Source: Naegleria gruberi (taxonomy: Eukaryota). Taken from it: a stretch of 64,000 bases of DNA. The stretch lies in the NCBI GenBank assembly GCA_000004985.1, contig GG738917.1; one strand, given 5' to 3'. Position 1 is the first letter of the stretch. Every line of letters begins with the position of its first letter. Under the pieces are notes generated by a model. It was not told the DNA's origin, did no database searches, and saw only the letters and a program-made list of their open reading frames with translations. Below are positions 909 to 49,741 of the stretch, piece by piece. The position numbers and the translations under genes are program-made.

Positions 909-2262
909 ATGATGCAACAACACCAACCTCAAGATTCCTTCGGATCAACTTTTGATTTTAGCACAGACAAGGGAAGCTATTCAATTCCAAAGCAAGCCTT
1001 GATCCAATATGTTGAAAAGGCTTTCTTACAAGAGAAAAAGTCCTTCTTGTTGCTTCCAATTCCTTCCTCTCAGGATTTTATTCCCTTCTCCGTGATGGAA
1101 CAAATTGCAAAGGAATCAGAGAGTGTTAGAAAACAAATGGAAATTGTTCTTCAAACTGTGCCAGAGCAGAATGATAGCTTGAGTGATTTTCACTATACTT
1201 TTGGATCATTACCAGATGAACCAAGTGTATCCTATGAAAGTGATCCGAATGCCTATGTTCAAGATTTGGCATTGTTGACCAATGATACACCTGGATTATT
1301 TGTCAATGATATTGATGGTGGAAAATTCCACTTTGTTTCACAACGTCATTATGATGCAGTTGGTGACTTTGTGTGTAAATATGTACAGGAAGAACTTTTG
1401 GTTAAGAGATGTAAATTAGATGAATATTGGTTGCCATTGGATATGAATGCACAAACTCAAAAAGATCAAATGGTTAATATCTTCATGTCAAAGGATGCAT
1501 TGACAAATCCAAACAAACTTATGCTTCTTATACAGGGATCAGGTGCTGTTCGTCCAGGACAATGGGCTAGAGGTATGTCTTTAATTTATTGAATTATTTG
1601 TAATCATTTGGAAAATAACTTGAATTAATACATTGTGTGAAATAGCTCTCTGTATGAATGACACACTCAAGACTGGTACTCAATACAATTATATTGTACA
1701 AGCTATGAAGGAAGGATATGGAGTGATTGTTTTCAATCCAAATCAAAACCATTACGTTCCAAAGGAGTTGGATGATCCAACCAAGTACAACAAGACAGGA
1801 TACATGAATAGAAACAAACCAGAACCATTGCCAAAGAATGTCAAAAAGTCCATTCCACACAATCAATCCCCACCTGAACATACAGTCTATGTGTGGGATC
1901 ATTTCGTTAAGAAGGCAGCAGCTAAGGATGTTGTAATTGTTGCTCACTCTGCTGGAGGTTGGTGCACTATGGAATTATTGAAGGAGAGAACACAGGAATG
2001 CTTGAATAGAGTTAGAGCTATTGCTTTTACTGATTCAGTTCACTCAGTTAATTCATCTGATCCAAAACCTGTTCGTGATTTTGTGGTTGCCAATGCTGTC
2101 AATTGGGTTACCTCTGAAAAGCAATGTGATGTTCTCGTTTCACCAAAGAGACAGGGATCATCATGTGAATGCAGAAGTGCTGGTCACAATAAGCATGAAT
2201 ATACCTCAGAGTTTTGTCGTGAAGCTGCCTTCTCATATATCAATGCTAAATTGGCTCAATAA
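909..2262 (+). CDS. Arb2/FAM172-like alpha/beta-hydrolase-fold protein, 2 exons (909..1572, 1646..2262)
   Basis: Two consecutive ORFs joined by a 73-nt intron (GTATGT donor at 1573, TAG acceptor ending 1645, phase 1 conserved). It has a GxSxG-like motif (AHSAGGW) typical of the FAM172/Arb2 family. Start ATG checked. Confidence 0.45.
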
Positions 2263-6245: not shown

Positions 6246-7313
6246 ATGCAAGTGGCCAAATCATTGCACGAATTTCAAACACTCAGAAAATTATTGGGCA
6301 ATAATGGAAAGGTTGTGAGTTTTGTTCCCACGATGGGAAACCTCCACAGCGGTCATTTACAATTAATGAAAATTGCAAAACAAAACTCGGATGTGGTTGT
6401 AAGCTCTGTTTTTGTAAATCCTGCACAATTTGCAGCAAATGAAGATTTTGATAAGTATCCAAGGACTCTACAATCAGATTTGGAAAAGATGAAGGAAATT
6501 GGTGTGGATTTAGTGTTGGCTCCAGGTGGAACTTCAGAGCTGTATCCACATGGATACATGACACGTGTCTTTATGAGTAAGATATCGACGGATACAGCTC
6601 AGTCACATCCATTGAGGAATAGTTCTGGATCTGTTGGGGAGGAATTGAATCATAATTGGTTGGAGGATCAACCAGAAGCTATTTGTAGAAGTGGTTTCTT
6701 TGATGGAGTTTCTACCATTTTAGTGAAATTGTTTAATATTGTAAGACCACAGGTTATTGTGTTTGGACAGAAAGATGCAGTTCAATGTATGGTTGTAAAG
6801 AGATTGGTTAAGGATTTGAATTATATTGATATTGAAAAGGTGATTATTGGAGAAACTGAAAGAGAATTGGACGGATTGGCCATGTCATCTAGAAATCAAT
6901 ATCTTTCTCCAATTGATAGGAAATATATTGCACCAATTTTGAATAGGATATTATTTGATGCTCAATCATCTTTTAAGAATATTGAAAATGTAAATGCTGA
7001 ATCATTGAGAAAGTGGCTGCAAGATTCATATAATCAATTGGAATTTTCATTTGAGGAAAAGTTGAAAAATCACTATTCGAATGGGTATAATAAGGAAGAT
7101 TACAAGATTGACTATTTGAGTGTGTGTAATTGGAACAATGGTCATGTTTATGGAACCATCTCTACAAATAATATTTATACAGAACCATTTTACAGTATTG
7201 AGAAGGAGAATTTACAAGATTTGACACAGCTCTGTTTATCCACAACTGTCCGAGTTGGAGGAACTCGTTTGTTGGATAATTTAATTATCAATGTTAGGGA
7301 AAATGGGATTTAA
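6246..7313 (+). CDS. panC: pantoate--beta-alanine ligase (pantothenate synthetase, PanC)
   Basis: It has the HIGH-type nucleotidyltransferase motif VPTMGNLHSGHLQLM and panC-like blocks (SVFVNPAQF, VFGQKD, MSSRN) over its whole length. Start ATG verified. It is about 70 aa longer than bacterial PanC because of internal insertions. Confidence 0.85.
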   Translation: MQVAKSLHEFQTLRKLLGNNGKVVSFVPTMGNLHSGHLQLMKIAKQNSDVVVSSVFVNPAQFAANEDFDKYPRTLQSDLEKMKEIGVDLVLAPGGTSELYPHGYMTRVFMSKISTDTAQSHPLRNSSGSVGEELNHNWLEDQPEAICRSGFFDGVSTILVKLFNIVRPQVIVFGQKDAVQCMVVKRLVKDLNYIDIEKVIIGETERELDGLAMSSRNQYLSPIDRKYIAPILNRILFDAQSSFKNIENVNAESLRKWLQDSYNQLEFSFEEKLKNHYSNGYNKEDYKIDYLSVCNWNNGHVYGTISTNNIYTEPFYSIEKENLQDLTQLCLSTTVRVGGTRLLDNLIINVRENGI

Positions 7314-11141: not shown

Positions 11142-11215
11142 GCCGTCATAGCTCAGTTGGATAGAGCACAGGACTTCTAATCCTGGGGTCGTGGGTTCGA
11201 GCCCCATTGTCGGTA
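11142..11215 (+). tRNA. tRNA-Arg (anticodon TCT)
   Basis: Cloverleaf parsed by hand. D-arm is GCTCAGTTGGATAGAGC, anticodon arm is CAGGA-CTTCTAA-TCCTG (anticodon TCT), and the T-arm GTGGGTTCGAGCCCCAT contains the B box. The acceptor stem has one U-U mismatch. It closely resembles eukaryotic tRNA-Arg(UCU). Confidence 0.8.
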
Positions 11216-18426: not shown

Positions 18427-20103
18427 TTATGGAGAGCTTTGAATACGATTGACAATGGCTGAAACAAGGGCAGAATTATGAACCTCTGCGCCAATACCCA
18501 ATGACTCTCTATCCTTCAAAATGCAACCACTCTTCTTAATACACAAACCAATAGCTGTTTCCAAGATGGTTCCAGTAGATCTCAAAGAATAGCATGGAGC
18601 AACCTTTTGACAACCATAGTAAAAGTATCTGGTAGCACAAGCAGAGAATATTGCGTTACCTCTAATATCTTGTAAACAATCCAATTGACAGGCAACACAT
18701 GGAGTGTTATCAACACCAGCAAAGGAAGCTCTGTCAGGCATTGGATAATCTGATGGACCAGTAACGTGGAATGAGCTAGGAGCAGAAGAAACCAAACCCT
18801 TTGCAGTGGAAGATAAAGAATTCTTAACTTCGTTGGTAGTTTTCTTTTCTCCTTCACTGGCCTTTTCTTTCAATTCCTTTTTAACTTCTGCAATCTTGGC
18901 AAGTGTGAATTCAGCTTTCAAACCATACTTTTTGTTCTTTAAAGTATTGAAAGCTTTCTTATTGAGAGATTTCAATCCTCTTCCCTTACCACCTTTCTTT
19001 CCTCTTCTGCCACCTCTTCTTCCACCTCTTTTACCACCTTTACCTCTTCTTCCACCCTTTCCTTTACCTCTTTTACCACCTTTTCCACCTCTTCTTCCAC
19101 CTTTGCCTCCTTTCTTTCCACCTTTACCTTTTCCACCTTTTCCTTTACCTCCTTTACCTTTTCCACCTTTTCCACCTTTTCCACCTTTTCCTTTACCTCC
19201 TTTTCCTTTTCCACCTTTACCTCCTTTTCCACCTTTGCCTCCCTTTCTTCCAGAATTTCCACCTTTCTTTCCACCATTTGATTTTCCTCCTCTTTTACCT
19301 CCTTTGGCTCCAACAGAATTTCCACCACCTCTTTTACCACCTTTTCCTCCTCTACCTTGTTGTTTTGATGTGGAACGAGCTGTACGACCACCACTGAGAG
19401 CTCCTCTCTTTCCAGATGGTTTACCACCAGTAGCACCAGCACCAGCACGTGAAGCAGATTTTCCACCTCTTTTACCACCAACACCACGTGAAGCAGATTT
19501 TCCAACAGATCCAGAAGTAGCACCAGTACCAGTACCAGCACCACCACGTGAAGCTCCTTTTCCACCTCCTCTTTTACCACCTCCTCCAGAAGAAGTAGCA
19601 CCACCACGAGATACTGAACCACTTCCTCTTCCAACAGAACTTCTTCCACTACTACCACCACTACTAGCACCTCCTCTTGAACCAGCTGATGATGATGAAG
19701 ATGATCTTCCACCACCACTACTACTAGCTCCTCCACCTCTAGAACCTCCTCCAGAAGATGATCCACCACCTCCTCTGGAACCTCCTCCAGAAGATGCTCC
19801 ACCACCTCGTGATCCACCTCCACCACCAGAAGATGATCCACCACCACCTCTTGAACCTCCACCGCCTCCACCACGTCCTAAAGTGTTGATGTTATCCTCA
19901 ATTAATTCTACATCTTCATCTTCATCAGAAGACAATGTAGCAGCAGCTACTACAACGGTACGTTTTTTTCCTGATGAACTGGTCTTGGCAGGTCCACGAC
20001 ATTGACTTGCTGTGGCATTGACACTTTCACATAGTAAAAAACATTGTATGCTGATAATTGCCAGAATAGCGAAAAGTAAAAGACGAATATTCCACTGTGG
20101 CAT
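18427..20103 (-). CDS. secreted basic Gly/Arg/Lys-repeat protein with conserved C-terminal 8-Cys domain (paralog A)
   Basis: ATG verified. A signal peptide is followed by the motif ATASQCRGP, an acidic stretch, (G3-4[RS])n repeats and GKGGKGGKG-type repeats. A C-terminal domain of about 115 aa has the pattern C-x2-C-x3-C...C...YFYYGCQKVAPCY...C...GC and is shared with the genes at 22143 and 30906. Confidence 0.6.
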   Translation of the reverse strand: MPQWNIRLLLFAILAIISIQCFLLCESVNATASQCRGPAKTSSSGKKRTVVVAAATLSSDEDEDVELIEDNINTLGRGGGGGGSRGGGGSSSGGGGGSRGGGASSGGGSRGGGGSSSGGGSRGGGASSSGGGRSSSSSSAGSRGGASSGGSSGRSSVGRGSGSVSRGGATSSGGGGKRGGGKGASRGGAGTGTGATSGSVGKSASRGVGGKRGGKSASRAGAGATGGKPSGKRGALSGGRTARSTSKQQGRGGKGGKRGGGNSVGAKGGKRGGKSNGGKKGGNSGRKGGKGGKGGKGGKGKGGKGKGGKGGKGGKGKGGKGKGGKGKGGKKGGKGGRRGGKGGKRGKGKGGRRGKGGKRGGRRGGRRGKKGGKGRGLKSLNKKAFNTLKNKKYGLKAEFTLAKIAEVKKELKEKASEGEKKTTNEVKNSLSSTAKGLVSSAPSSFHVTGPSDYPMPDRASFAGVDNTPCVACQLDCLQDIRGNAIFSACATRYFYYGCQKVAPCYSLRSTGTILETAIGLCIKKSGCILKDRESLGIGAEVHNSALVSAIVNRIQSSP

Positions 20104-23660: not shown

Positions 23661-25049
23661 TTAAAACAAATCCTCAATGTCCACATTTTCCCATCCTTTG
23701 AAAAATATTCCCTTCTTATTGACATTTAGCATTTTAGCTTCCCATTCTCTGTATCCTTTGATTGGTGCATCAGCGTTTACAATTTTACTGAATACTTTAA
23801 CTCCATTATTAACATTTTCATAAACTCCTGCCAGTAGTTCTAAATCCTGATCAAATATCATATCAACTGTTTTAGCAAATTTGTTTCGTATGAAAGGAAT
23901 CTTGTTCAGAAAATTCAATATGGAGAGGGAGGAATAGAACTTGAATATTACTTTAACTTCACCTTCTCCTGTTGGAATTAAGCAAAATACTTGTGACATT
24001 CTTGGACCTGATCTTTCATTTGCAATATAGTCAGTGGTGTCCATTCTTACAAAGCAAGGTGGAATGAATGATAACTGAACCATAAATTCTGATTTCAGAC
24101 CTGGAATTTTCTTGAATTCTGGTTTTGTGAATCGATAAGTGAAAGAATCTTGATGAATACTTTGATCGTATTGCATTTCTTTTGGAATGAGTCTTCTCGA
24201 TGGATTGTCTGATGGGATATCTTTAGATATTACGAGTTGGCTTTGAATCTGTGTGGCTTGACTTCTCTTTCCAATAGTTCCATCATGTGTAAAATCCAAA
24301 TGAGCAGGGTCAAGCAAATTCTCCAATACAAACGAGTAATGACAAGGTAGGTCTCTTGTGTTTTCTATTAACACTTCTAGTTTTGAAGAATCATCAGTTA
24401 AAAATTCTTCTCTAAATAATTCCAAAGGTATTTGATTAATATCTGCCTTAACCTTATCATTGGGAAATACCCAAATTAGTCCACAACATTCATGAACTTG
24501 TTTTGCTTGGCACTTGATGGTAGAGCACAATCCTTTCATTCTTTCAGACGAAACTGATGGAATTCTAACACATTGTCCTTCTTTTTCAAACCTCCAACCA
24601 TGATAAGCACATTCCAAGGATCTTTTCCCTTCGAATTCTGTAACTTGTCCTGTAGAAAGTTTGGCAGATCTGTGAGGGCATAAATCTTTCACACAAGTAA
24701 TATTGCCATCACTAGTTCTATACAATGCAAGTGGTTCTCCAAATAGCTTGATTGTTTTTGGTTTAGAATCAGTGATGGAAACATCTTTTGAAAGTGCCAC
24801 TGGATACCAAAACAAGGTCATTTCCAAATTTGTAACATCTGATTTGGTTTTAAATGTATCATTAGGAAATTTCTCAATAATATTCTTTTGTTTAAATATG
24901 AACGAAAAATCCAACCAATCAAATAATCGTAGATAATACTTTGATACTACAACCAATCCTCCCACAACGATAGCACCCAATGCTAGGAGCATGCTGATTG
25001 AATATTCCGATCCTAATACTTTACTTCCTATCTTTACGAGTTGTTGCAT
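23661..25049 (-). CDS. Rieske [2Fe-2S] non-heme-iron oxygenase (Neverland/cholesterol-7-desaturase-like or PaO/CMO-like), N-terminally membrane-anchored
   Basis: The Rieske motif is CPHRSAKLSTGQV...CAYHGWRF. The mononuclear-iron motif is E-x3-D-x2-H-x4-H (ENLLDPAHLDFTHDG). There is an N-terminal TM helix. ATG verified. Confidence 0.7.
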   Translation of the reverse strand: MQQLVKIGSKVLGSEYSISMLLALGAIVVGGLVVVSKYYLRLFDWLDFSFIFKQKNIIEKFPNDTFKTKSDVTNLEMTLFWYPVALSKDVSITDSKPKTIKLFGEPLALYRTSDGNITCVKDLCPHRSAKLSTGQVTEFEGKRSLECAYHGWRFEKEGQCVRIPSVSSERMKGLCSTIKCQAKQVHECCGLIWVFPNDKVKADINQIPLELFREEFLTDDSSKLEVLIENTRDLPCHYSFVLENLLDPAHLDFTHDGTIGKRSQATQIQSQLVISKDIPSDNPSRRLIPKEMQYDQSIHQDSFTYRFTKPEFKKIPGLKSEFMVQLSFIPPCFVRMDTTDYIANERSGPRMSQVFCLIPTGEGEVKVIFKFYSSLSILNFLNKIPFIRNKFAKTVDMIFDQDLELLAGVYENVNNGVKVFSKIVNADAPIKGYREWEAKMLNVNKKGIFFKGWENVDIEDLF

Positions 25050-27164: not shown

Positions 27165-27851
27165 TTATTCCACATTACAAAAAGATGTTCCAACAAAAAC
27201 AGCATCAGTATTGGAGAAAGGTTCAAGTGTTAGCAATTCTCTTGGTTTGAAATACTTTTTAACATCGGTGATTGTTTCTTGGGTCCATTCTACAGATTGT
27301 TGAACGTATCCTTCAGGTTTGTGTAGTACAATATAAAAATCTCCACCTTCTTTAAGGAATAATTTGGCATTCTCTGTCATTGCTTTGTGAGTACCATTTG
27401 TCATTATGATGTCCACTTTTTCAGGAATTTCTGATTGATATTCAGATGGATTATTTGCACTTCCACTAATTGCAATAAGATTATTTCTTTGTGATTGCAA
27501 TTTTGCAACAATTTGATAGTCAGATTCAGAACTATTAACACAATAAACTTTTCCACTAGTAGAAATAATATCCGAAATAAAAGATAAGGTAATTGGTGCA
27601 ACATCAATACACAATATCTTTCCTCCTGGTTTGACACTCATAAAGTGCAAACCAGACACAATGCTGGCAGCCAGGCGACAATCCACTCTCCATTTTCTAT
27701 ATTCAGTTCCGTTAATTGTAACGATTTCATCAAAATCAAAAACTTCAGGAATATTTGGTGCATAGTTTACAGTACACAATACATGGAATGGCTCTTCAGG
27801 ACTTGTTGTGATGAACATATTTGGAAATCTGTGTGGTTCAATTGTTGACAT
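27165..27851 (-). CDS. divergent fibrillarin-like SAM-dependent methyltransferase (no GAR domain)
   Basis: It is collinear with the fibrillarin catalytic core: EYRKWRV (cf. EYRVWNP), KPGGKILCIDVAPI (cf. KPGAKVLYLGAASG), VYCVNSS (cf. VYAVEFS), DIIMTNGT, EGGDFYIVLHK, and ELLTLEPFSNTDAVFVG (cf. EQLTLEPYERDHAVVVG). The track ORF extends 5' into the upstream gene in another frame; the first ATG (27851) is used as the start. Confidence 0.5.
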   Translation of the reverse strand: MSTIEPHRFPNMFITTSPEEPFHVLCTVNYAPNIPEVFDFDEIVTINGTEYRKWRVDCRLAASIVSGLHFMSVKPGGKILCIDVAPITLSFISDIISTSGKVYCVNSSESDYQIVAKLQSQRNNLIAISGSANNPSEYQSEIPEKVDIIMTNGTHKAMTENAKLFLKEGGDFYIVLHKPEGYVQQSVEWTQETITDVKKYFKPRELLTLEPFSNTDAVFVGTSFCNVE

Positions 27852-27903
27852 TTTTTTTTGATGATAAATCAACGGAAGGATTGGTTGTTTTGCAATGTTA
27901 CCT

Positions 27904-29367
27904 TCATTGTAAAATGCAATTATTTGTTGAGGATGACAGCAAAGATTGCACTCTCTTGAAGTTTGTGAAATGTTGAAGGTGTTTCTTGTAGGATTCGTAG
28001 TTAGCTTTCTCCTTTTCATACTTTTCAAGTTCTGTGTAGTAATAGGAAGGAGGCCACACATTTGTTTTGATTTCAATCAAATCTTCTTCCTCTAGAGAAT
28101 TCTGAATGAGTGGTAAATAGTTTGCATAATTGTTTGTCATATAGTAGAGGCATAGTTTTCGTAATTGTTTGGCATTGTAAAGTTTAGAAAACAAGTAGAG
28201 AGTTACAATTTCTTCACTGCCATTTTTTGCATTCTCTTCATTGATAGATTTCGATATGAAAACTTCACATTGAGTTTCAAGATGATTCATGTTATATAGG
28301 TGAGCTATGGCTAAAATTGTACACACAGAATTGGAATCAAATACAGGTTGTCTGTGATAGACATGTTGTAGAAAGGCCTCGCATCCTTTGATTTGATCTT
28401 CAATGGAATTAGTTAATTCTTGACCTTCAAATAGATTAATTTCAGTCATGGAAGAAGAGCTCTCAATAAAGCCATCTGTGAACATAACCTTAAAGACATC
28501 ACTGCACACAAATAGAAAACATTTGTTGGCGTATCTGTAGTTATCTCCAATTTTGAATTGAACATCAGCATACTCTTTCTTTCCAAAGAAGTTTGTGTTT
28601 AGTTTCGAATAGAAATCCTGCATAATATTTTCAGATCCCTCATTAAACAAATCACACTTATCGTAAAAGTTTTTCAGAGATGGTGCGTCGAATAAGAGTG
28701 ATAATTCATCAATTCTTCCTTTCAGGAATTTCTTCTCTAGATTAATAGTTTTCCCACAGTAAGTCAATTCTAGTATGGTTATAAATTCTTGTGTTGATAT
28801 AGATTCTACTAGCTCAAGTTTGAAAATTTTCTCCTCATAAAGTATGGTCTTAAATAAAGTGGAGTACTCAGAATAGAGCTCCGGTATTTCTTCTATCTTA
28901 TCGTTTGCAGCAAGATATTTCAATTTAGTGAATAAATTTTCCAATACTTTCGAGCAAGAACAGCTCAGAATAATACTATGAGCATATAGATTTTCTATTT
29001 CATTATTCTCATAATTCATTCCAATAATATGTACATCAGAAAATGCAGAATTATTGAGTAGTGATTGATTATTCTCAAATGAAAATCCAATTCTTTCTAA
29101 CGGTTGAGGTTTTTCTCTTTTCTCTGGTAATCGAGGACATTTCCTCACAGGAGGTGGAAGACAAGTGGAAACAAGGAGTTTCAAAGTGGATACTTTTGTT
29201 TCCTGATACGCTGCATTTATCACTCGATGCATGCACAAAGTTACATTAATATCCAAATCCGAACTTATGAGATAACTTGCACAAACATTATCCTCATTCT
29301 TTTTCACCACATTCATAATATCCTCCTCAATTATTGATCTTTGCAAATCAAAATTTTCATTCATCAT
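27904..29367 (-). CDS. tandem BTB/POZ-domain protein
   Basis: Two BTB-like signatures are present (FSDVHIIGMNYENNEIENLYAHSIILSCSCSKVLENLF and YADVQFKIGDNYRYANKCFLFVCSDVFKVMFTDGF). ATG verified. Confidence 0.45.
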   Translation of the reverse strand: MMNENFDLQRSIIEEDIMNVVKKNEDNVCASYLISSDLDINVTLCMHRVINAAYQETKVSTLKLLVSTCLPPPVRKCPRLPEKREKPQPLERIGFSFENNQSLLNNSAFSDVHIIGMNYENNEIENLYAHSIILSCSCSKVLENLFTKLKYLAANDKIEEIPELYSEYSTLFKTILYEEKIFKLELVESISTQEFITILELTYCGKTINLEKKFLKGRIDELSLLFDAPSLKNFYDKCDLFNEGSENIMQDFYSKLNTNFFGKKEYADVQFKIGDNYRYANKCFLFVCSDVFKVMFTDGFIESSSSMTEINLFEGQELTNSIEDQIKGCEAFLQHVYHRQPVFDSNSVCTILAIAHLYNMNHLETQCEVFISKSINEENAKNGSEEIVTLYLFSKLYNAKQLRKLCLYYMTNNYANYLPLIQNSLEEEDLIEIKTNVWPPSYYYTELEKYEKEKANYESYKKHLQHFTNFKRVQSLLSSSTNNCILQ

Positions 29368-30905: not shown

Positions 30906-32123
30906 TTATCCAGCCCTTATAGCTCCAACCATGGTTGATAAGATCTTTTGAGCTGATGCCCTCTTACTCAAATTCAGTTTCTTTCTATCAACAGTACATC
31001 TATTCTTTGTAATACACATTGCAATAGCAACTTGGATGATATTATCTGAGGCAGTTCTTTCATAACATGGAGCTTTTTGTTGACATCCATAATAATAATA
31101 TTGCTGTCCGCATGTGGAGAAGATAGATGAGAATCCACCAAATGGTTGAGTACAATCAATCTTACAAGCAACACAAGTATTACGTTCAGAACCAGTGAAT
31201 AATGATCTTTCTCCTTGATCATCACTTGAAGGACCAGTCATATCAAAAAAGCTTGGATTTTGAGCTGCAATTTGCTTGGCAAGAGTATCAATTGCATTAT
31301 ATGTGATGTGTGTATCCTTTCCTCCATTGCCATTTGCCACAGCAGTTGGTACAGGTTTTACAACAACTGTTGGTGGAGCTACAACAGCAGCAACGGTTAC
31401 CTTTTTAACATTGTTAACCAATGGATCTCTGGTTACCTTGGTAGTTTTGGCTTTAGCCTTACTCTTTGATTTACTCTTTGATTTACTCTTACTCTTGGAC
31501 TTTCCTTTAGATTTTCCTTTAGATTTTCCTTTAGATTTACCTTTAGACTTTCCTTTAGATTTACCCTTTGAAGACTTTCCTTTGGATTTACCTTTGGATT
31601 TTCCAGAAGATTTACCCTTAGATTTACCAGATGACTTTCCTCTTGAACCCTTGCTGCCACCTTTGGAGCCACCTTTACTGCCTCTAGAACCACCTCTGGA
31701 TCCACCTTTACTGCCTCTTGAGCCACCTTTGCTTCCTCTGCTTCCACCTCTAGAACCTCCACTTCTGCTTCCTCTGGATCCTCCTCTTGAACCTCCACTT
31801 CTAGAACCACCTCTTGAGCCACCTCTGCCTCCTCCTCCACGGCCACCACCACGGCCTCCTCCACCTCTGCCTCCACCACCACGACCACCTCCACCTCCTC
31901 TACCTCCAAGAGTGGTTGCTGCATGTGTTGCTCTTTCATAATTTTCCAAATCTTCCTCATCCAAATCGTGTCCAAGAACGAGTGTAGTTCTGGTTTTACT
32001 TGATGAGGCAGTACTGGCTGGTCCTCTGCATTGACTGGCTGTGGCATCAACATAGATAACCATGGCCAACAAGGCAACCAAACCAAACAATACGCTGATT
32101 CTTACACCTCTGTTAAATAACAT
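30906..32123 (-). CDS. secreted basic Gly/Arg/Ser/Lys-repeat protein with conserved C-terminal 8-Cys domain (paralog C)
   Basis: The track start is GTG; the first ATG is at 32123 and gives a clean signal peptide (MLFNRGVRISVLFGLVALLAMVIYVDA). It has TASQCRGP, an acidic stretch, (RGGGG)n, (GSRGGS)n and (KSKGKS)n repeats. The C-terminal Cys domain is CVACKIDCTQ...YYYYGCQQKAPCY...AMCITKNRC. Confidence 0.6.
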   Translation of the reverse strand: MLFNRGVRISVLFGLVALLAMVIYVDATASQCRGPASTASSSKTRTTLVLGHDLDEEDLENYERATHAATTLGGRGGGGGRGGGGRGGGGRGGGRGGGGRGGSRGGSRSGGSRGGSRGSRSGGSRGGSRGSKGGSRGSKGGSRGGSRGSKGGSKGGSKGSRGKSSGKSKGKSSGKSKGKSKGKSSKGKSKGKSKGKSKGKSKGKSKGKSKSKSKSKSKSKSKAKAKTTKVTRDPLVNNVKKVTVAAVVAPPTVVVKPVPTAVANGNGGKDTHITYNAIDTLAKQIAAQNPSFFDMTGPSSDDQGERSLFTGSERNTCVACKIDCTQPFGGFSSIFSTCGQQYYYYGCQQKAPCYERTASDNIIQVAIAMCITKNRCTVDRKKLNLSKRASAQKILSTMVGAIRAG

Positions 32124-32358
32124 TTTTTTAAAGATACACACTCATAATTTTACAGAACTGATACATTTCTCACTATCAACCTTCCAAATTAAGTATGATG
32201 TGAGTACGGTAGTGGAACACTTTCTGGATATTTGAAGTTTTCAATCGAGTCAGCATGGAATAGGAACAAATAAACAGCACTTATGTGGCATGATAAAAGA
32301 ATTTGGGTATTAATTCAGTTAGCTATCAAGAGATTTGTAAAATAATTTATCTGAAAAA

Positions 32359-48253: not shown

Positions 48254-48935
48254 TTTTTGCAGTATAAATTAACTATCTATTAAAATGGAAGGTGTGCAAC
48301 AATTGATGATTATTATGTTTGGACGTGAACATTTTCATAAGATGGAAAGAAAAACATCTTCCTGATTATTACATTGTTTAGAAGTGATTACAGTTGTTTT
48401 TTCTATTATTGATAAAAATTGAAATTTAAGGTACCAATCTGCATGTTCACAAATCCCCCATTCACGAACCATGGCTGGTTAGGAATGCAGCAATCATCTA
48501 TGAACGAGGAAACCTACAACGAAGCATGTTTCCAGTTCTATGTCATGCTCAAGATATGTGACTACAGAGTCTTCATCTTGGTTAACCTCAAAGGTCAGAT
48601 TGACTCAAAAAAGTCGAGTTTATGTATTCCTACAGAAAAGATCCTGTAGAAGTACAGTCAATGGTTTTACAAATACTGCATCCTCAGTGATGTTTTGGTT
48701 GGGAAAGTGAGAAATGTTGTGAGGAGAAGTTATGGTTAAAATATTGGGAATTATTAGAATTTTTGGATCAAGAAAATATTTGAATTGAAGAAAGTACAAA
48801 AACCGAGTAATTAGAGAAACATGTTGTACACCAACAAGAACTATTTCATCAATATTGATTGAGATGGTGTTTGTTTTTGAAATATTTCAGGATGGACTAT
48901 TCAATGTCAAAAATAAGATTTCAAATTACATGTGA

Positions 48936-49016
48936 AGCAGGGGTTCCCGAGTGGTCAAAGGGGGTAGACTCAAGTTCTACTGCGCAAGCTTCGTGGGTTC
49001 AAATCCCACCTTCTGC
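48936..49016 (+). tRNA. tRNA-Leu (anticodon CAA), class II with long variable arm
   Basis: Sequence is GCAGGGGTTCCCGAGTGGTCAAAGGGGGTAGACTCAAGTTCTAC-[variable arm]-GTGGGTTCAAATCCCACCTTCTGCA. Anticodon stem is GTAGA/TCTAC, loop is CTCAAGT (anticodon CAA), and there is a B box GGTTCAAATCC. It closely matches eukaryotic tRNA-Leu(CAA). Confidence 0.8.
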
Positions 49017-49670
49017 AGATTTTGCTTCTTTCTCCCTTAGTCTTTTTGAATAGACCACTATTTGCAAATATTTATTGTTAGTCCGACGTCTAGTTTCTAT
49101 GGTAAAAACTTTGTTCAATTTCATAAAGACTCTATAAAGATAATCAATAAAGATAACACTGACCTCAAATATTCCAGCCTAAACAATTTGAAAAATACCA
49201 TGCACAAAAAAGAAGAAAGACTACAAATTTGGCAAAGTGAAGGAAAAAGACTACAGCACCACAGGTTCCCAAGTTGTCTCCAACCTCAGTACTGATGTGG
49301 CTCGACGATAAATCGGACGGGATGAGGTGCATTCATCGTGATATGGCCGTAGCCATTCAATTGTTGAAAATTTGAAAAATAAATCAAATTCAAGCATGTT
49401 CTTGATAACAGGAAATATTGATATTTGTTGAGATTTATCATTTCACCACTAACAAATCAAATTGGAAAATTTAATTGTACTAATTTTTTATGGAATATTT
49501 TAAACTAGCTCATAAAAAAATGATGTTAAAACTGAGGCTTCTAAAAACGGATGTACAAATAGTTTTTAAAAAATAAAAACACAATTACCAAGATAGATAT
49601 CCAAACCATCACTACAAGAAAATAAATTGTGTGAAAATAAATGATCTTAGAAAAAATCATAAAATGTTAT

Positions 49671-49741
49671 CTCGAGTGCCGGGAATTGAACCCGGGTCGC
49701 CAGAGTGACAGTCTGGAATGCTACCACTATACCACACCCGA
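49671..49741 (-). tRNA. tRNA-Asp (anticodon GTC)
   Basis: The reverse complement reads TCGGGTGTGGTATAGTGGTAGCATTCCAGACTGTCACTCTGGCGACCCGGGTTCAATTCCCGGCACTCGAG. Anticodon loop is CTGTCAC (GTC), and the B box is GGTTCAATTCC. The acceptor stem is fully paired (one G-U). It closely matches eukaryotic tRNA-Asp(GUC). Confidence 0.8.

Follow-up and report, generated by a model that had tools for sequence, protein, structure and literature searches.

Fibrillarin is usually regarded as a single, almost invariant and essential enzyme, and surveys count its copies without judging their function. Its Gly-rich motif I is the general cofactor loop of Rossmann-fold methyltransferases. Here, we analyse a fibrillarin-like protein, named NgFLP, which is encoded by the open reading frame (ORF) 27165-27851 (-) in a 64,000-nucleotide stretch of Naegleria gruberi nuclear DNA (contig GG738917.1 of assembly GCA_000004985.1); this whole stretch is referred to as “the window”. 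Previously, the methyl group of S-adenosylmethionine (SAM) was reported to lie amid an Ala and a K-D-K-H tetrad, residues described as unchanged between archaea and vertebrates, the Asp of the tetrad being essential (PMC3413156). In human fibrillarin, SAM is contacted by E186-F187 and D211-A212 (as cited in PMC3203579). The crystal structure of the yeast Nop1–Nop56 complex places helix alpha4 in the interface core, and the Arg of this helix (R231 in Nop1, R138 in Pyrococcus) is stated to be conserved throughout the eukaryotes, the R231E substitution abolishing Nop56 binding (PMC7962484).

NgFLP shares with eukaryotic fibrillarin/Nop1 the full-length Pfam domain, the two-subdomain fold and the signatures EYR-W, SxxSDI, NAxxFLKxGG and LEP together with the eukaryote-type C-terminal motif. 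In contrast to NgFLP, the eukaryotic enzyme has the Gly/Arg-rich (GAR) domain, the motif I glycines, the SAM-contacting E/D, the K-D-K-H tetrad, the AQP stretch, the Nop56-anchoring Arg and a basic domain. Archaeal fibrillarin (aFib, Pyrococcus 2NNW/4BY9) resembles NgFLP in its length and in being GAR-less, and it provides the best structural superposition; however, none of its catalytic or SAM residues has been lost and it associates with Nop5, while NgFLP reaches none of the NCBIfam equivalog cut-offs for aFib. The pseudo-methyltransferases METTL14 and DNMT3L, as NgFLP, keep the Rossmann methyltransferase fold with degenerate cofactor and catalytic residues, but they represent a different methyltransferase family and are defined by the active partner which they activate. 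Our search of the full-text literature yielded no relevant paper on a fibrillarin paralogue devoid of catalysis. Based on the data given below, we suggest that NgFLP is probably such a protein: a GAR-less eukaryotic fibrillarin paralogue which has kept the fold and no longer acts as a SAM-dependent 2'-O-methyltransferase (a “pseudo-methyltransferase”).

Fold, active site and docking surface of NgFLP

The Pfam Fibrillarin profile (PF01269) matches residues 4-222 of NgFLP over profile positions 1-224 of 227 with 111 bits (E 6.2e-32; gathering cut-off 27 bits), and no other Rossmann-fold methyltransferase profile scores significantly in the Pfam scan. Sixteen fibrillarin sequences from the PDB match the protein at E 8e-25 to 2e-10. 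An AlphaFold2 model made from a 51-sequence alignment (predicted local distance difference test, pLDDT, 89.8; predicted template modelling score, pTM, 0.89) presents a predicted N-terminal beta subdomain joined to a seven-stranded Rossmann methyltransferase fold, superposable on the solved fibrillarins. When this model was compared with the PDB using Foldseek, the top 37 matches were all fibrillarin chains with template modelling (TM) scores of 0.74-0.91, including 0.84-0.90 for the human, yeast and Chaetomium chains, and the next fold class followed at about 0.5. The best match was Pyrococcus 2nnw_B (TM 0.91, root-mean-square deviation 1.9 A).

A preliminary description of this locus, made from the letters alone, had proposed a 229-residue protein collinear with the fibrillarin core. 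The core match stands, although the length is 228 residues followed by a stop codon; all the peptides quoted there (EYRKWRV, KPGGKILCIDVAPI, DIIMTNGT and LTLEPFSNTDAVFVG) occur in the translation, and the model and the Foldseek matches support the fibrillarin fold. The absence of an N-terminal GAR domain is also borne out: the ATG lies two codons ahead of the profile start with no RGG/GAR sequence before the domain, and the in-frame extension upstream of this ATG overlaps the neighbouring BTB gene and contains no RGG repeats.

The divergence of NgFLP within the family is pronounced. It stays below the curated cut-offs of all five NCBIfam fibrillarin equivalog models (NF003275-NF003279), the best scores being 90.4 against 254 and 77.7 against 113 bits, while NF003276 is passed by the canonical eukaryotic protein P0010 (260 bits) and by the N. 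lovaniensis protein P0002 (121 bits). The less divergent paralogues reach about 270 bits in Pfam, compared with 111 for NgFLP. The paired profile scores and the C-terminal motif show NgFLP to be of eukaryote-type descent: it scores 139 bits on the canonical eukaryotic profile versus 127 on the archaeal one (about 13 bits in eukaryotic favour), archaeal control sequences give -48 to -81 bits for the same difference, and the eukaryote-type motif KPxExLTLEP is present.

To dissect this divergence, we aligned 271 homologues, collected by an exhaustive search of 1.84 billion protein representatives and by a profile search, to the fibrillarin hidden Markov model (HMM) and tabulated the conserved columns. 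Eleven functional columns were fixed from the literature before scoring (G, G and T of motif I; the SAM contacts E, D and A; and K-D-A-K-H), and 49 other columns conserved in >=80% of sequences served for comparison. NgFLP keeps a single functional position out of 11, Ala132 following the motif II site, versus 32 of the 49 other columns (Fisher one-sided p = 8.5e-4). Motif I reads D83-V-A-P-(gap)-I-T, its first Gly (96%) being replaced by Asp and the second (92%) missing. The alignment of ILCIDVAPIT with the canonical VLYLGAASGT is unambiguous, and the altered SAM-binding motif noticed in the preliminary description (CIDVAP instead of YLGAASGT) is real.

The changes in the SAM pocket go beyond motif I, involving N106, S131, N152 with the AQP stretch, R59, H177 and D216 (Table 1). 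The K-D-K-H tetrad reads R-N-H-D, the adjacent Ala is deleted, and the deletion of the A-Q-P stretch beside the methyl group spans 4-6 residues. Judging from the alignment, this is a pseudoenzyme pattern and not a uniform decay, because the losses are concentrated at the active site and the fold-determining residues are retained. Two options had been offered earlier, a paralogue with a different substrate and a catalytically altered fibrillarin-fold protein; with 10 of the 11 functional positions changed, the second is favoured.

The surface which docks fibrillarin to its partners has also been changed. Residues were mapped to NgFLP through the Pyrococcus numbering, and a yeast Nop1 sequence served as a second check of this mapping; it agrees with the residue identities of the Nop1–Nop56 study at 11 of the 12 quoted positions. 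In addition to the replaced Arg of helix alpha4 (Q139, Table 1), NgFLP has Q113 where another Arg is near-invariant (position 205 in yeast). Its domain is acidic (isoelectric point, pI, 5.0; net charge -8), while the canonical eukaryotic domains have a median pI of 8.9 and a net charge of +3, and the archaeal median pI is 8.7. Assembly of NgFLP into box C/D small nucleolar ribonucleoproteins (snoRNPs) and RNA binding by it are unlikely because of the lost alpha4 Arg, Q113 and the acidic domain. In summary, NgFLP would not bind SAM productively, would sit outside the box C/D snoRNPs and would have been kept for some function other than catalysis, the binding of other proteins being the most plausible.

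Relatives in Naegleria and other protists

The top-scoring relative of NgFLP in the 1.84-billion-protein library is XP_044555740.1 of N. lovaniensis (P0002; 107.5 bits, 35-37% identity). The two proteins of this genus are both GAR-less and lack the alpha4 Arg, and they share xC[KR]LA in place of RSKLAA, NAKLFLKE-GDF and an LH motif in beta5. However, P0002 has one intron, an N-terminal HipN (Hsp70-interacting protein N-terminal) domain (25 bits against a cut-off of 23) and most of the catalytic residues: it retains 7 of the 11 functional positions, including the Gly loop, both Asp and both Lys. We know of no description of such a HipN–fibrillarin architecture. A missed upstream HipN exon of NgFLP was considered and rejected, since tblastn of the window finds no HipN-like sequence. 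Comparison of 21 kb around the P0002 locus with the 64 kb of the window revealed no synteny, and the sister relationship of the two proteins receives a bootstrap of 17% in neighbour-joining (NJ) trees. For these three reasons the orthology of NgFLP and P0002 is not established. No N. fowleri counterpart of NgFLP appeared in the profile search.

Further GAR-less divergent relatives come from dinoflagellates (P0099 and P0279), the oxymonad Blattamonas (P0017) and Arcella (P0157), and from environmental or transcriptome data (P0018, P0115, P0047, P0121, P0016 and P0008). The alpha4 Arg is absent in all 12 paralogues examined, NgFLP and P0002 included; all the domains are acidic or neutral, and in most of the 12 the functional positions were lost preferentially. 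The replaced residues mostly differ from protein to protein, and many of the other paralogues read VVDA at the site of LHKP in NgFLP.

The dinoflagellate proteins, P0279 from Alexandrium monilatum and P0099 from Logan ERR9851073 (L002), possess a common N-terminal extension which is ubiquitin-like by eye and has no Pfam match; the P0099 gene call starts at GTG, and homologous sequence extends further upstream. Like NgFLP, P0099 has DVAP at motif I (TDVAP) and NGT at motif IV. This match may be a coincidence because the Alexandrium homologue has PKVGP and NGA at these sites. Orthology of NgFLP and P0099, considered on the basis of DVAP and NGT, is weakened accordingly, and NgFLP ranks 188th-239th among the hits of the dinoflagellate proteins.

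In the NJ trees (200 bootstraps), the position of NgFLP shifts within the set of long-branch paralogues, all groupings being supported by 25% or less. The great distance of NgFLP from all other sequences also makes reciprocal best hits uninformative. These trees favour neither a single old family nor repeated origins of the paralogues. Tentatively, and with rather low confidence, NgFLP might be placed in an old, patchy “orphan” fibrillarin-like family occurring in Discoba, Metamonada, Amoebozoa and dinoflagellates. Under this scenario, the GAR domain, the Nop56-anchoring Arg and the basic RNA-binding surface would have been lost after an early exit from the box C/D snoRNP, new N-terminal modules (HipN, the ubiquitin-like region, a coiled coil) would have been gained, and catalysis would then have been lost repeatedly. 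A protein-binding or regulatory role of NgFLP is our best guess, held weakly; it is suggested by the relatives bearing HipN or ubiquitin-like N-terminal modules in place of the GAR domain.

The gene and its surroundings

NgFLP looks like a separate, maintained gene and not a decayed copy, since its frame is intact and its codon usage is host-like. An open frame of 228 codons is expected by chance about 0.007 times per window. The codon usage amounts to 0.39 bits/codon in frame versus -0.24 and -1.07 in the other frames, and falls inside the range of the 22 neighbouring ORFs (0.19-0.55). Of all single-base changes across the ORF, 4.5% would create a stop, so that neutral divergence beyond about 0.1 substitutions per site would probably have disrupted the frame. 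The ATG at 27851 lies within tcaaaaaaaaATG, and such an A-rich context precedes most long ORFs in the window.

The sole near-identical database protein is the public gene model P0001, “predicted protein [Naegleria gruberi]”, which covers the C-terminal 69% of the ORF with 100% identity. The 70 residues missing from it (27639-27851 (-)) constitute the N-terminal beta subdomain and match Pfam Fibrillarin positions 1-70; the public N. gruberi model should be lengthened from its Met71 start to the full 228 residues.

Table 1. Coordinates of NgFLP, of its replaced residues and of other features; positions refer to the window except for the P0002 locus.
Feature	Position	Strand	Basis or remark
NgFLP coding sequence, complete, intron-less	27165..27851	(-)	translation: 228 residues and TAA stop
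R59, replacing the first catalytic Lys (Pyrococcus fibrillarin K57; K 91%)	27675..27677	(-)	HMM alignment, 271 homologues
Met71, start of public gene model P0001 (158 residues)	27639..27641	(-)	P0001 = NgFLP residues 71-228
D83-V-A-P86, degenerate motif I; canonical G-[AV]-[AS]-[ST]-G-T	27594..27605	(-)	HMM alignment
N106, replacing the SAM-contacting post-I acidic residue (E/D 93%)	27534..27536	(-)	HMM alignment
S131, replacing the motif II Asp (D 90%); next Ala retained	27459..27461	(-)	HMM alignment
Q139, replacing the helix alpha4 Arg which anchors fibrillarin to Nop56/Nop5	27435..27437	(-)	R in 90% of canonical eukaryotic fibrillarins
N152-G-T154, degenerate motif IV: catalytic Asp (91%) to Asn, following A-Q-P deleted	27390..27398	(-)	HMM alignment
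H177-K178: His aligns with the second catalytic Lys (K 88%), Lys one residue on	27318..27323	(-)	alignment less certain here
D216, replacing the tetrad His (H 87%)	27204..27206	(-)	HMM alignment
Spacer from BTB stop to NgFLP start, 52 nucleotides, ending in tcaaaaaaaaATG	27852..27903	(-)	sequence
Tandem-BTB ORF, two BTB stretches (Pfam)	27904-29367	(-)	ends in TGA, 52 nucleotides upstream of the NgFLP ATG
P0002 locus	N. lovaniensis PYSW02000001.1, L001 10001-11083		HipN domain fused to fibrillarin-like domain
U3 box C/D small nucleolar RNA gene	48433-48661	(-)	76 bits
tRNA-Leu(CAA)	48937-49017	(+)	
5S rRNA	49248-49354	(-)	
tRNA-Asp(GTC)	49671-49741	(-)	
tRNA-Arg(TCT)	11142-11215	(+)	
ORF with weak Arb2-domain match	909-1592	(+)	
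ORF following the preceding one	1654-2262	(+)	
PanB–PanE fusion ORF, 723 residues	3530-5701	(-)	
Pantoate-beta-alanine ligase (PanC)	6246-7313	(+)	
RGG-containing protein, first copy	18427-20103	(-)	no Pfam match
RGG-containing protein, second copy	30906-32141	(-)	no Pfam match
Rieske / pheophorbide-a-oxygenase-type oxygenase	23661-25049	(-)	Rieske, VanA_C and PaO domains
Multi-pass membrane ORF, 272 residues	25438-26256	(+)	no Pfam match

Several other features of the window deserve mention. Two paralogous proteins of one layout have a signal-peptide-like N-terminus, an ATASQCRGPA motif, RGG/SGG and then KGG/SKGK low-complexity runs, and a common Cys-rich C-terminal domain (CVAC..DC...YYYGCQ); their RGG runs are GAR-like yet unrelated to NgFLP, and the first copy accounts for the GC peak at 18-20 kb. 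The gene for U3 lies in a cluster of non-coding RNA genes within an ORF-poor stretch, together with 5S ribosomal RNA (rRNA), tRNA-Leu and tRNA-Asp, while tRNA-Arg is found apart from this cluster. In one ORF, ketopantoate hydroxymethyltransferase (PanB) is joined to ketopantoate reductase (PanE/ApbA); this ORF is the divergent neighbour of PanC, which makes a bacterial-style pantothenate cluster in a eukaryote. The gene of a Rieske-type oxygenase and the membrane-protein ORF are also divergent neighbours, and two same-strand ORFs located 61 nucleotides apart at the beginning of the window may be exons of one gene interrupted by a short intron, rather than two genes.

Competing explanations and the meaning of NgFLP

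Several points weigh against NgFLP being a pseudo-methyltransferase. Fibrillarins make up most of the AlphaFold2 alignment, and the fold match therefore depends in part on the sequence match; the public model of the gene is a truncated computational prediction; among the homologues found, no NgFLP orthologue is close enough for comparing nonsynonymous and synonymous substitution rates; and a tree-of-life survey counts one N. gruberi fibrillarin, the protein being unspecified (PMC7608942 supplement). Moreover, polar, semi-conservative exchanges account for several of the replacements (K to R, E to N, D to N and D to S, with a Lys beside H177), and NgFLP may have an unusual ligand or residual activity. 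The polar rather than hydrophobic character of the pocket replacements, K178 beside the second catalytic Lys position and the predicted integrity of the fold and of the pocket-forming secondary structure would suit an active, snoRNP-independent methyltransferase with a remodelled cofactor pocket and a different substrate. Since P0002 retains most of its catalytic residues, the lineage may have begun as such an enzyme; nevertheless, we consider present activity unlikely, as 10 of the 11 functional positions, including both motif I glycines and the essential Asp, were changed together, the A-Q-P deletion lies beside the methyl group, and Fibrillarin alone among the Rossmann-fold methyltransferase profiles scores significantly. 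With a similarly low probability, NgFLP could be a relic inactivated not long ago: a duplicate which is dispensable or not expressed and is turning into a pseudogene. Of the Naegleria copies it is the most degenerate, with 33 of 60 conserved columns preserved, and apart from the non-syntenic N. lovaniensis protein no orthologue was found in the 1.84-billion-protein library, nor was an N. fowleri counterpart in the profile search; such a patchy distribution is expected of a dispensable gene. This explanation is opposed by the frame of 228 codons intact in AT-rich DNA, by the host-typical codon usage and the good start context, and by losses which cluster at the functional sites and spare the fold-determining positions.

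The other explanations concern the identity and origin of the gene. The single count in the survey would be expected if NgFLP were the sole, extremely divergent fibrillarin orthologue of N. gruberi; it would also be obtained if the survey had counted only a canonical copy, or the truncated model of NgFLP. A canonical N. gruberi copy was not retrieved in the protein searches made, which were aimed at the paralogue family, nor from the literature, and the best canonical-looking match, P0156, was rejected as the N. gruberi fibrillarin because it lies on a GC-rich, non-Naegleria contig. That NgFLP is the sole orthologue is, in spite of this, highly improbable: it has lost the Asp which is essential in the tested fibrillarins and the Arg which binds Nop56, and the presence of the U3 gene in the window means that N. 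gruberi uses the box C/D snoRNP machinery. In addition, a monoclonal antibody staining the Naegleria nucleolus recognises yeast Nop1 (PMC3321029), a published phylogeny includes the fibrillarin of N. fowleri as an orthologue (PMC11761994), and P0002, the relative from N. lovaniensis, is likewise non-canonical, being fused to HipN. We infer that a canonical N. gruberi fibrillarin is encoded elsewhere in the genome and performs the rRNA methylation; NgFLP, being GAR-less, highly divergent and with its catalytic and Nop56-binding residues replaced, is unlikely to be the housekeeping enzyme, as the preliminary description had already supposed. Horizontal acquisition from an archaeon is no more credible. 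It would explain the GAR-less organisation and the length of about 227 residues, the higher score of Pyrococcus than of human fibrillarin in the PDB sequence search (91 versus 80 bits), the prevalence of Thermococcales in the word-indexed profile search and the motif II context “G-x-A”, which recalls the archaeal “GDA”; however, it was rejected because of the higher score on the eukaryotic profile, with the true archaeal sequences lying on the opposite side, and because of the KPxExLTLEP motif, and it is also at odds with the host-typical codon usage and with a best overall match to another Naegleria protein. The last explanation, that NgFLP is the C-terminal part of a BTB–fibrillarin fusion or of a co-transcribed unit, is scarcely more probable. 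It had been raised because of the same-strand position about 50 nucleotides downstream of the tandem-BTB gene, and the measured spacing (52 nucleotides) is indeed the shortest tandem spacing in the window, followed by 61 and 101. A fusion has no support in the sequence, however: the BTB frame ends in TGA and differs from the NgFLP frame, the single AG acceptor in the gap (at 27903) immediately follows this stop, and the GT donors giving an in-frame fusion lie 316-523 nucleotides upstream, have a weak consensus and would remove the C-terminal part of BTB, so that no plausible intron was found among the enumerated donor and acceptor combinations. In addition, the fibrillarin homology begins at residue 3, straight after an ATG in a typical context, and P0002 has no BTB neighbour.

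The presented analysis of NgFLP, which we regard as a probable pseudo-methyltransferase, suggests some caution for automated annotation, since its relatives carry the name of the active enzyme (“rRNA 2'-O-methyltransferase fibrillarin”) in UniRef. For the family, NgFLP indicates that the fibrillarin fold can outlast its cofactor pocket and catalytic tetrad as well as the residue which docks to Nop56, and comparable GAR-less acidic copies occur across several protist lineages. If expressed, such copies are candidates for non-catalytic regulators, decoys or chaperone-linked adaptors. Should the less likely “orphan” family prove true, it would represent a previously undescribed class of fibrillarin-fold pseudoenzymes having a non-nucleolar, protein-binding role.

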